10,711 bases of DNA from Escherichia coli (GTDB taxonomy: Bacteria > Pseudomonadota > Gammaproteobacteria > Enterobacterales > Enterobacteriaceae), in assembly GCF_003334315.1 (NCBI RefSeq), contig NZ_QOWR01000088.1; one strand, written 5' to 3'. The notes under the pieces are model-generated. The model did not search any database, was not told where the DNA came from, and saw only the letters and a list, made by a program, of their open reading frames with translations. Position numbers and translations under genes: made by a program. This document shows positions 6,729 to 7,851 of the stretch, one piece after another. Positions within the stretch are counted from its first letter, which is position 1. Each line of letters starts with the position of its first letter.

Positions 6729-6763
6729 GTCGTGATGTGAACTAACGCAGGAACCGATCAGAT

Positions 6764-6824
6764 TGAGAGTTACCGTTCCAGAGAGGGGGACCGAATCCTT
6801 ATATAAACACTGAGGTAACTCTCA
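6764..6824. repeat. Perfect 11-bp inverted repeat (6764-6774 tgagagttacc / 6814-6824 ggtaactctca) with 39-bp spacer, downstream of betA
   Basis: Seen directly in sequence. Lies 36 bp after the betA stop in the betA-ykgH intergenic region. No canonical hairpin-plus-U-tract terminator is evident for the betIBA operon, so this may be the 3' end structure or a protein-binding site. Confidence 0.5.
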
Positions 6825-6940
6825 TGCTTCATATCCAGTATTCATGATGCGGGCTTTTTGCTGATATTTAACCCGAACATTCCTGATACAGACTATTAAT
6901 ACAACCTTATCTGCGACAGATTTTATTCTCTGGATATATT

Positions 6941-7609
6941 ATGCGTGAACAAATCAAACAGGATATCGATCTGATTGAGATTTTATTTTATCTGAAGAAA
7001 AAGATTCGTGTTATCCTTTTTATTATGGCTATATGTATGGCTATGGTGCTGTTGTTTCTGTATATCAATAAAGACAATATAAAAGTGATTTACAGCCTAA
7101 AAATAAACCAGACAACGCCAGGTATACTTGTTAGCTGTGATAGCAATAATAATTTTGCCTGTCAGACTACAATGACTGAAGATGTTATTCAGCGAATTAC
7201 TACATTTTTTCACACCAGCCCAGATGTCAAGAACAGAGAAATAAGGCTGGAATGGTCAGGAGATAAGAGAGCTTTACCAACTGCTGAAGAGGAAATATCT
7301 CGCGTGCAGGCCTCTATTATCAAATGGTATGCGTCAGAATATCATAATGGCAGGCAAGTTCTCGATGAGATACAAACGCCTTCAGCAATTAACAGTGAGC
7401 TTTATACAAAAATGATATACCTGACCAGGAACTGGTCATTGTATCCGAACGGTGATGGCTGTGTAACTATAAGCTCACCAGAAATAAAAAATAAATACCC
7501 TGCTGCCATTTGCCTGGCTCTGGGATTTTTTCTAAGCATTGTAATTTCTGTAATGTTTTGCCTTGTCAAAAAAATGGTAGATGAATACCAACAAAACTCT
7601 GGGCAGTAA
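6941..7609 (+). CDS. ykgH: Uncharacterized bitopic inner-membrane protein YkgH
   Basis: 222-aa ORF with an N-terminal hydrophobic segment (VILFIMAICMAMVLLFLYI) and a C-terminal one (AAICLALGFFLSIVISVMFCLV) flanking a hydrophilic domain. Position between betA and ykgG and the 222-aa length match remembered E. coli ykgH. The gene is markedly AT-rich relative to its neighbours. Function unknown. Confidence 0.8.
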   Translation: MREQIKQDIDLIEILFYLKKKIRVILFIMAICMAMVLLFLYINKDNIKVIYSLKINQTTPGILVSCDSNNNFACQTTMTEDVIQRITTFFHTSPDVKNREIRLEWSGDKRALPTAEEEISRVQASIIKWYASEYHNGRQVLDEIQTPSAINSELYTKMIYLTRNWSLYPNGDGCVTISSPEIKNKYPAAICLALGFFLSIVISVMFCLVKKMVDEYQQNSGQ

Positions 7610-7704
7610 TAAACAACATTCTGATAGAGAGTGCCTGTATAAAGCTGAAGTGACAATGACCGGGAAGGGAACCCGTTTTCAGGAATGGATGCCTGTCTTT
7701 TTCA

Positions 7705-7745
7705 CTGTAAATATCCTGGCATTGGTAATACCAGGATATTTACAG
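7705..7745. repeat. 41-nt near-perfect palindrome (15-bp perfect arms 7705-7719 / 7731-7745) in the convergent ykgH-ykgG intergenic region
   Basis: ctgtaaatatcctgg (7705-7719) is the exact reverse complement of ccaggatatttacag (7731-7745). The central 11 nt can add 3 more base pairs around a GGT triloop. No U-tract follows on either strand (T-run precedes on +, A-run follows on -), so it is not a canonical intrinsic terminator. Confidence 0.5.
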
Positions 7746-7851
7746 AAGAGCAGCATAACCATGACGGAACGGGGTTAAGTCAGGTTGTCCTAAACGCTAT
7801 TTTCAACCTCGTATGCCTTCTTCAGGTTTATGTCCAGACTTCATATCTCTC

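Follow-up and report, generated by a model that had tools for sequence, protein, structure and literature searches.

The Wzz proteins are polysaccharide co-polymerases (PCPs) that act with the polymerase Wzy, and in current models of their action Wzy and the growing chain lie in the lumen of a Wzz octamer, polymerization stops when the lumen is full, and the second transmembrane helix of Wzz contacts Wzy (PMC12004945). WzzB, WzzE and FepE (PF02706 and PF13807; structures 6RBG and 8BHW) are 325–377 amino acids (aa) long and carry a transmembrane (TM) helix at either end, with a periplasmic α/β base and a helical hairpin between them. A related regulator of chain length, Wzz(pHS-2) of Shigella flexneri, is encoded on a 3-kb plasmid (PMC12004945). 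This study concerns ykgH, a gene carried by a stretch of 10,711 nucleotides from Escherichia coli (contig NZ_QOWR01000088.1; hereafter the window, meaning this whole stretch) that holds the K-12-type betT / betI-betB-betA / ykgH / ykgG-ykgF-ykgE region. ykgH is a long-standing K-12 “y-gene” that is still annotated as uncharacterized, and an earlier note on the window, made from the sequence alone, had described it as an AT-rich orphan under possible silencing by H-NS. As first described the gene is an ordinary one; what adds interest is its probable identity as a miniature Wzz-like protein, the presence of paralogues on small plasmids, and its link with the neighboring island PAI-X. The best explanation overall, favored here only tentatively, is that ykgH encodes a miniature PCP that modulates Wzy-dependent chain length.

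YkgH and the Wzz proteins

YkgH very probably belongs to the PCP superfamily, by fold as well as by homology. Its hydropathy profile peaks at residues ~24–42 and 188–208, with Lys and Arg on the outer flanks of both segments and a periplasmic middle of ~145 aa, which implies a predicted topology with both termini in the cytoplasm (N-in/C-in). The earlier note had correctly seen two hydrophobic segments, but the term “bitopic” that it used does not suit a protein that spans the membrane twice. An AlphaFold2 model built on the family alignment (pLDDT 85, pTM 0.68) places the TM helices at residues 22–42 and 188–220 and passes from TM1 through a strand, helices, strands, a 35-residue helix, a return helix and further strands to TM2, so that the periplasmic α/β base domain and the helical hairpin predicted for a PCP fold are both present. 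When this model was searched with Foldseek against the Protein Data Bank (PDB), the first 31 matches were all Wzc, KpsE or WzzE; against AFDB50 the search returned family members at TM-scores of 0.8–0.9 and many proteins of 210–280 aa annotated as chain-length determinants, with E-values of 1e-7 to 1e-10.

Sequence comparison required the family profile, since the single YkgH sequence retrieved only noise from the PDB (matches to the TM segments of G-protein-coupled receptors and PsaI). The top match of the profile among PDB sequences was WzzB (6rbg_A, E 0.002), aligned in three colinear stretches that cover TM1 (WzzB 14–55), part of the base, and TM2 with the tail (WzzB 294–326); between the last two of these stretches YkgH has 48 residues and WzzB 128. 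Alignment to K-12 WzzB with hhalign gave an E-value of 6.5e-5 over 82 columns. Among 14 family members, the GNVR domain was matched at 1e-3 or better in two (best 8e-8) and the Wzz domain at 0.1 or better in eight, while the NCBIfam WzzB and FepE models match, weakly, the N-terminus of six of the seven distant members. Some relatives are already labelled automatically as “GNVR domain-containing” or “chain length determinant N-terminal domain-containing” proteins. The family alignment conserves an N-terminal IDLxEL motif, W105 and G107, W129-Y130, Y155, and a K-Y pair before TM2; Cys66 and Cys74, present in all the full-length members that were aligned, likely form a periplasmic disulfide.

WzzB, WzzE and FepE are thus the best matches of YkgH in both sequence profile and fold, and share with it the terminal TM helices with the predicted N-in/C-in topology, the IDLxEL motif, the base and hairpin seen in the model, and a K/R-rich tail ending in Tyr. 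On the other hand, YkgH is only 222 aa long (25.6 kDa), short of the ~40 kDa of PCP-1 regulators, it has only two short periplasmic helices (109–143 and 153–167) and lacks ~80 residues of the helical bell, and the Pro/Gly-rich motif beside and within TM2 is present only in part: YkgH (SPEIKNKYPAAICLALGFF) has two Pro and one Gly there, and its distant relatives retain only the K-Y pair. It can therefore be said with high confidence that YkgH is closest to PCP-1 proteins in architecture, most of the helical bell being absent. It was rejected as an orthologue of WzzB or FepE, because the curated cut-offs of these models (267 and 300 bits) are missed by more than 240 bits, the best family member reaching 24.8 bits, and because the gene is not linked to wzx/wzy clusters.

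The statement in the earlier note that YkgH has no recognizable motif and no assignable function fails at the level of fold, where the protein is placed as a truncated PCP/Wzz-like protein; the note had itself held that a clear homology-based functional assignment would remove the outlier status of the gene, and this placement weakens that status accordingly. It also offers a concrete and cheaply testable function for an old “y-gene”, and the lumen-filling model of chain length could usefully be probed with a natural Wzz from which most of the periplasmic bell is gone.

Small PCPs of another kind are found among Gram-positive bacteria, where PCP-2b adaptors such as CpsC and CapA use their C-terminal tail to activate a tyrosine kinase that is a separate protein. 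CpsC, CapA and Wzd (TIGR01006) resemble YkgH in size (~220–230 aa), in their two TM segments and in their short extracytoplasmic domain, and TIGR01006 matches YkgH weakly (E 0.013–0.016). The match is nevertheless confined to the N-terminal motif; these proteins pair with an adjacent gene for a bacterial tyrosine kinase, and a kinase gene stands beside no member of the YkgH family. The cytoplasmic tail of YkgH, of ~14 residues, is moreover WzzB-like (RNALRNY in WzzB, KKMVDEY in YkgH), and the E. coli kinases Wzc and Etk have PCP domains of their own. That YkgH acts as a kinase adaptor of this type is extremely improbable, and a Wzz-like role is preferred.

Relatives of YkgH on plasmids and islands

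Word-indexed protein searches gave sequences from Escherichia and Citrobacter only, and the family surfaced only when 1.84 billion representative proteins were searched exhaustively, which brought up about ten distant clusters at 21–29% identity. Their hosts are all Enterobacterales, those named being Citrobacter, Providencia and Kosakonia, with further relatives on plasmids of E. coli, Salmonella, Enterobacter, Klebsiella and Shigella; orthologues of YkgH were found only in Escherichia. A scan of genome contigs with a pattern matching E. coli YkgH recovered, besides a contaminant contig of 256 bp from a Nocardioides assembly, only two loci of Kosakonia, and missed E. coli itself, so that it is silent on other species of Escherichia. 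Throughout the family the genes have 29–35% G+C in hosts of 42–54%, including a Kosakonia locus of 54% G+C.

One of these settings is that of a YkgH paralogue present in 54 PLSDB records, mostly ColE1-type plasmids of 3.5–5.9 kb with rop and mbe/mobC genes (e.g., pSMS35_3, L015; also L016 and L017). The paralogue (220 aa, 27% identity, 29% G+C) is the sole gene outside the plasmid backbone, and it has been recorded from E. coli, Salmonella, Citrobacter, Enterobacter, Klebsiella and Shigella. Its standing as the whole cargo of such small plasmids implies that YkgH should act in trans on conserved machinery of the host. Wzz(pHS-2) is the evident precedent, being likewise a PCP gene carried as cargo by a very small plasmid, and acting in trans on the chromosomal Wzy; it is nonetheless a full-length PCP-1b that yields very long chains, whereas the YkgH paralogue is a mini form with a putative activity, and the two have only the superfamily in common. 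A sole-cargo paralogue on widespread ColE1 plasmids suggests that glycan length may be changed by tiny mobile elements beyond this precedent.

The same settings could be read differently, the family being mobile cargo that guards the envelope from attack by phages, colicins or serum without acting on chain length, for example by blocking a receptor or an injection step in the inner membrane. This would suit the plasmid paralogues and the Providencia homologue, which lies within an island carrying integrase, ArdA and AlpA genes, as well as two kinds of allelic variation, namely a repeat of Asp-Ser units in the periplasmic loop and a highly diverged ykgH allele at the same locus. The repeat is a hexanucleotide, GATAGC. 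It stands beside the conserved Cys66, occurs once at 7139..7144 (+) in the window and in K-12, and has grown in frame to three or four copies in other alleles of E. coli (SC-DSDSDS-DNN). The diverged allele, 50–58% identical to that of K-12, is found on the metagenome contigs L028 (1–2910) and L029 (1–3175) and in none of 5,426 complete E. coli genomes. PADLOC and PHROGs gave no credible match for YkgH or for four relatives, however, and the PCP fold points to glycan assembly; protection of this kind is very unlikely, and modulation of glycan assembly is the better account of the family.

Adhesin genes recur beside the family, which brings in another possibility, that its members are accessory factors of adhesin loci (autotransporters or fimbriae), concerned with regulation or display, in which a PCP-like fold would have been co-opted for work unconnected with the length of glycan chains. 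In E. coli, ykgH directly follows the autotransporter gene hyxB (upaB) on the same strand in 1,875 of the 5,426 complete genomes (35%). On both metagenome contigs the diverged ykgH allele is followed by an 83-aa membrane open reading frame (ORF) and then by a second hyxB-like autotransporter gene; on L029 the allele is split by a frameshift, and the 3′ end of a hyxB gene, with 97% identity to that of E. coli at the protein level, stands directly before it. The homologues of Kosakonia and L004 stand after the gene of a 1,610-aa autotransporter, that of L007 after a fimbrial operon, a 605-aa PglL/Wzy_C-like protein and a ScsC/DsbA-like protein, and that of Citrobacter between two genes for PapB-family regulators. 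Against this, ykgH is present without hyxB, at an empty K-12-type junction, in 3,264 of the 5,426 genomes (60%), and the plasmid and Providencia settings hold no adhesin gene. The Kosakonia-type autotransporter is unrelated and not an orthologue of HyxB, so that a conserved autotransporter-ykgH synteny was rejected for Kosakonia and L004, and AT-rich islands are commonly rich in adhesins, which could make the adjacency a coincidence. To our knowledge no PCP takes part in type V secretion, and an accessory role in adhesin loci is decidedly unlikely.

The L007 locus (1–14111) has two further features of its own: its chaperone-usher fimbrial operon is interrupted by a reverse-transcriptase gene, and a gene for an ADP-ribosyltransferase similar to pertussis toxin and enterotoxin A lies close to the member of the YkgH family.

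PAI-X and the length of O-antigen chains

PAI-X, the island that separates betA from ykgH in the genomes with hyxB, is a 5,990-bp fimX(ipbA)-hyxR-hyxA-hyxB segment bounded by two copies of ATATCC (L002 3005–3010 and 9001–9006), an arrangement that fits either insertion with duplication of the target or deletion by microhomology. It resembles ykgH in being its immediate neighbor on the same strand, in being AT-rich (its genes have 42–49% G+C) and in being exclusive to E. coli. It differs in that ykgH stands outside the segment, is present in the genomes without the island, is more AT-rich, and is set apart by a hairpin; the boundary given by the 6-bp repeats and the presence of ykgH at empty sites led to the rejection of ykgH as part of PAI-X. 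HyxR is a LuxR-type regulator. HyxA (L002 5827–6588) has no match in Pfam or NCBIfam, and its C-terminal part looks, by eye, like a LuxR-type helix-turn-helix; a homologue 39% identical to it is encoded in the T1-antigen locus of Salmonella (PMC11294581).

In strain EC958 of the ST131 clone, mutants of hyxA and hyxR have more O-antigen of 2–6 units and less very long O-antigen (PMC3789825). The mutants are sensitive to serum and were complemented, and the authors regarded HyxA and HyxR as novel regulators of chain length, with no effector named (PMC3789825). Clones with a transient resistance to phages have also been found to carry the hyxR switch inverted (PMC12361893). With its gene lying just downstream of PAI-X, a mini-Wzz is an obvious candidate effector for the chain-length phenotype, and the adjacency thus offers a lead on a change in O-antigen length and serum resistance that is unexplained in a pandemic clone.

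How a protein of this shape might act can be sketched. YkgH would insert in the inner membrane, where its TM helices and base domain would serve it either to form a small oligomer of its own round a Wzy-type polymerase or to mix with the resident WzzB, FepE or WzzE. Having kept the TM helices and the base with a very small periplasmic dome, it would be expected to give very short chains or to disturb the resident Wzz complexes, and the length distribution of undecaprenyl-linked glycans, whether O-antigen or enterobacterial common antigen (ECA), would shift toward short chains. In K-12, which lacks O-antigen, the gene would be largely idle; in strains with PAI-X, YkgH would be the candidate effector of the hyxR/hyxA phenotype. 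Modulation of chain length as the function of YkgH, which this analogy with Wzz suggests, is a possibility that we regard as doubtful rather than remote.

Several observations weigh against this reading. YkgH itself falls below the thresholds of Pfam for both domains (Wzz PF02706, residues 8–44, i-E 0.0025; GNVR PF13807, E 0.56) and scores 11.6 bits against the NCBIfam WzzB model, for which 267 are needed, and the AlphaFold2 model is that of a monomer and says nothing on oligomerization. No polysaccharide genes adjoin ykgH in E. coli, where its neighbors are the bet, ykgEFG and hyx genes, and across the family the linkage with Wzx/Wzy clusters is missing, the Wzy_C/PglL-like neighbor at L007 being the only one of its kind. 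The gene is intact in K-12, which makes no O-antigen, is dispensable there and serves as a neutral integration site. It has a transcription unit of its own, and the PAI-X segment ends 105 bp before its ATG. Cotranscription with hyxB is unlikely, given that strains with PAI-X have a terminator-like hairpin (CCAG...CTGG) followed by a run of six T between hyxB and ykgH (L002 9005–9023); in K-12 (6835–6863) the right arm of this hairpin reads CGGG and the stem is broken. The EC958 serum-resistome paper makes no mention of ykgH, the loss of which therefore did not score there. The literature that names ykgH holds no experiment linking YkgH to glycan length, and no connection to Wzz, lipopolysaccharide or the function of PAI-X. 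Two genetic observations are compatible with a role in the envelope and prove nothing: the Keio ykgH mutant is among the Congo-red (curli) hits (PMC5745457), and an L-form strain with overproduction of colanic acid carries a point mutation in ykgH.

A wider version of this proposal takes the YkgH family as a mobile class of mini-Wzz proteins that reprogram the length of O-antigen or ECA in trans, and YkgH as the missing effector of PAI-X. The proteins would do so as co-polymerases with a small lumen or by poisoning resident Wzz octamers. In strains with PAI-X, the phase-variable FimX-HyxR/HyxA switch would then work through YkgH on O-antigen length, which would tune serum resistance, susceptibility to phages and the degree to which short adhesins, UpaB among them, are exposed, and the paralogue on ColE1 plasmids would spread the same chain-length device horizontally. 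As a whole, this wider version is unlikely.

Composition, age and transcription of ykgH

The interval between the stop codon of betA (6728) and that of ykgG (7852), i.e., positions 6729–7851, contains a single long ORF, ykgH, annotated as “protein YkgH” or “uncharacterized protein YkgH” (Table 1). With 36.9% G+C (41.7, 32.3 and 36.8% at the first, second and third codon positions), the gene differs from the bet genes (55–58%, and 64–70% at third positions) and from ykgG, ykgF and ykgE (50–52%), and lies ~3.7 standard deviations below the mean of 669-bp windows taken outside the interval (53.8%, standard deviation 4.6, minimum 39.9%). Rare codons make up 9.0% of the gene, including 10 ATA, compared to 1.2–5.6% in its neighbors, and it is the only gene whose mean log2 relative synonymous codon usage, calculated on the usage of the neighbors, is negative (−0.26; neighbors +0.02 to +0.37). 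The AT-richness and the A/T-rich codon choice reported in the earlier note are thus borne out for the gene. Its flanking spacers, which had been estimated at one-third G+C, measure 40.6 and 42.6%, ordinary values for the window; because the other spacers are more AT-rich (32–33%), ykgH is the sole outlier.

Table 1. Features of the ykgH region (positions are those of the window; TM, transmembrane segment)
Feature	Position	Strand	Remarks
ykgH coding sequence	6941..7609	+	222 aa, 25.6 kDa; probable miniature PCP/Wzz-like inner-membrane protein
TM1, residues ~24–42	7010..7066	+	preceded by the Wzz-type N-terminal motif DIDLIEILFYLKKK
Periplasmic domain, residues ~43–187	7067..7501	+	predicted α/β base and short helical hairpin (helices 109–143 and 153–167)
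TM2, residues ~188–208	7502..7564	+	SPEIKNKYP before, tail KKMVDEY after; GNVR-like region of PCPs
betA-ykgH spacer	6729..6940	+	40.6% G+C; reported H-NS site (PMC3946193)
Perfect 11-nt inverted repeat	6764..6824		arms TGAGAGTTACC / GGTAACTCTCA, 39 nt between; just 3′ of the betA stop codon
ATATCC junction hexamer	6831..6836		single copy in K-12; two copies flank the PAI-X segment
Promoter-like GCGACA-16-TATATT	6913..6940	+	adjoins the ykgH ATG; same hexamers given in PMC3946193
ykgH-ykgG spacer	7610..7851		42.6% G+C; common to the 3′ ends of two convergent transcription units
Northern-probe site, candidate 3′UTR small RNA	7653..7682	+	PMC8175672
Inverted repeat, 19-nt arms, 3-nt loop	7705..7745		no T-run after it on either strand

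A horizontal origin of ykgH from an AT-rich mobile pool is well supported, on the strength of its atypical composition and codons, its narrow taxonomic range, the plasmid and island settings of its relatives, the AT-richness of the whole family and its position at the insertion point of an island. The acquisition is an old one rather than a recent arrival, and with this qualification the proposal of horizontal transfer stands. Of the 5,426 complete E. coli genomes, 5,221 hold the betT-ykgE region and 4,957 the greater part of it, and ykgH itself is kept in 4,957 (~91%). In a comparison of K-12 with four divergent E. coli strains, the rate of synonymous substitution (dS) in ykgH (0.07–0.14) was like that of its neighbors betA (0.06–0.22) and ykgG (0.06–0.16), which indicates that the gene diverged together with its surroundings over a long residence; the idea that ykgH is unusually divergent within E. 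coli was rejected on the same ground, the 90–95% identity class of the region largely reflecting the spacers and normal divergence between strains. The ratio of non-synonymous to synonymous substitution (dN/dS) is 0.13–0.28 in ykgH and 0.05–0.20 in its neighbors: ykgH is under moderate, somewhat relaxed purifying selection.

These figures bear on a further reading, in which YkgH is a vestigial PCP, silenced by H-NS, that now does little or nothing, at any rate in strains like K-12. Besides the base composition and the rare codons, it is favored by the H-NS site reported upstream (PMC3946193), by a dN/dS two to five times that of betA and ykgF, by the dispensability of the gene and its use as an integration site, and by the lack of the bell region that is thought to set chain length. 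Disruptions are seen as well, namely an IS1 insertion within the matched region in MB50 (H1), an IS1-linked deletion (H12) and frameshifted products from complete genomes (P0041 and P0043); E41 (L003) lacks ykgH, ykgEFG and further genes and has IS1A 66 bp past betA. A relic is, on the other hand, hard to square with the long residence of the gene in most genomes, with a dN/dS well below 1, or with the retention of Cys66, Cys74, Trp129 and the motifs across relatives of 21–29% identity. Small plasmids keep paralogues as their one cargo gene, ykgH transcripts are measurable in UTI89 and K-12, and the Keio mutant is among the Congo-red hits. Like the other H-NS-bound xenogeneic genes of K-12, ykgH is AT-rich, with atypical codons, a narrow taxonomic range and a reported H-NS site, but it is near-core and old in E. 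coli and not strain-specific. Vestigiality is rather unlikely on balance, and a miniature PCP that modulates chain length remains the preferred explanation; if ykgH were inert, it would be an old H-NS-bound relic and an ordinary finding.

Published data on H-NS, which the earlier note had proposed to consult, agree with its suggestion as regards binding, since genomic SELEX assigned both an H-NS site and an RpoD site to the betA-ykgH spacer (PMC3946193). The main texts of the literature naming ykgH contain no data on a rise in its transcription upon deletion of hns. The promoter-like hexamers of Table 1 abut the ATG and cannot alone yield a leadered mRNA for that start codon; judged from their position, they cannot be the whole story for ykgH transcription. 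As to conditions of expression, the note had pointed to osmotic stress and anaerobiosis, of which the first has no link that we could find and the second appears in one data set: in UTI89, ykgH (UTI89_C0333) changed by −2.93 after treatment with a cathelicidin-derived peptide, alongside the anaerobically induced frdB, pflB, dcuA and ansB (PMC6737244), which hints at oxygen-linked expression. Under the same treatment fimX rises while ykgH falls (PMC6737244).

Downstream of the gene, the 3′ untranslated region (3′UTR) was ranked as a candidate Hfq-bound small RNA from RIL-seq and was not seen on northern blots (PMC8175672). A weak hairpin (CGGG-N7-CCCG, then TTTT) lies at 7661–7679, under the published probe site, and the 3′UTR folds with a z-score of −3.97. 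No terminator-like site was called in the K-12-type sequence between 6600 and 7950, and an Rfam scan of the whole window at E ≤ 1 gave no match, so that no known RNA family explains the spacers. On the upstream side, the 11-nt inverted repeat stands immediately left of the island junction; K-12 and LR-28 share only 89.5% identity over the betA 3′ end and the spacer left of this junction, and their betA products have different C-termini (NRDLN in K-12, VRAKK in LR-28).

Elsewhere in the window, the stretch left of betT (439–808) is the most AT-rich part, with 29–32% G+C. The AT-rich spacer there contains a small yahV-like ORF at ~429–503 (−), so that ykgH is not, as had been stated, the only gene of the window whose product lacks an assigned function. 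The coordinates of this ORF are approximate, and where yahV is expected in this window the reading frame closes with two stop codons.

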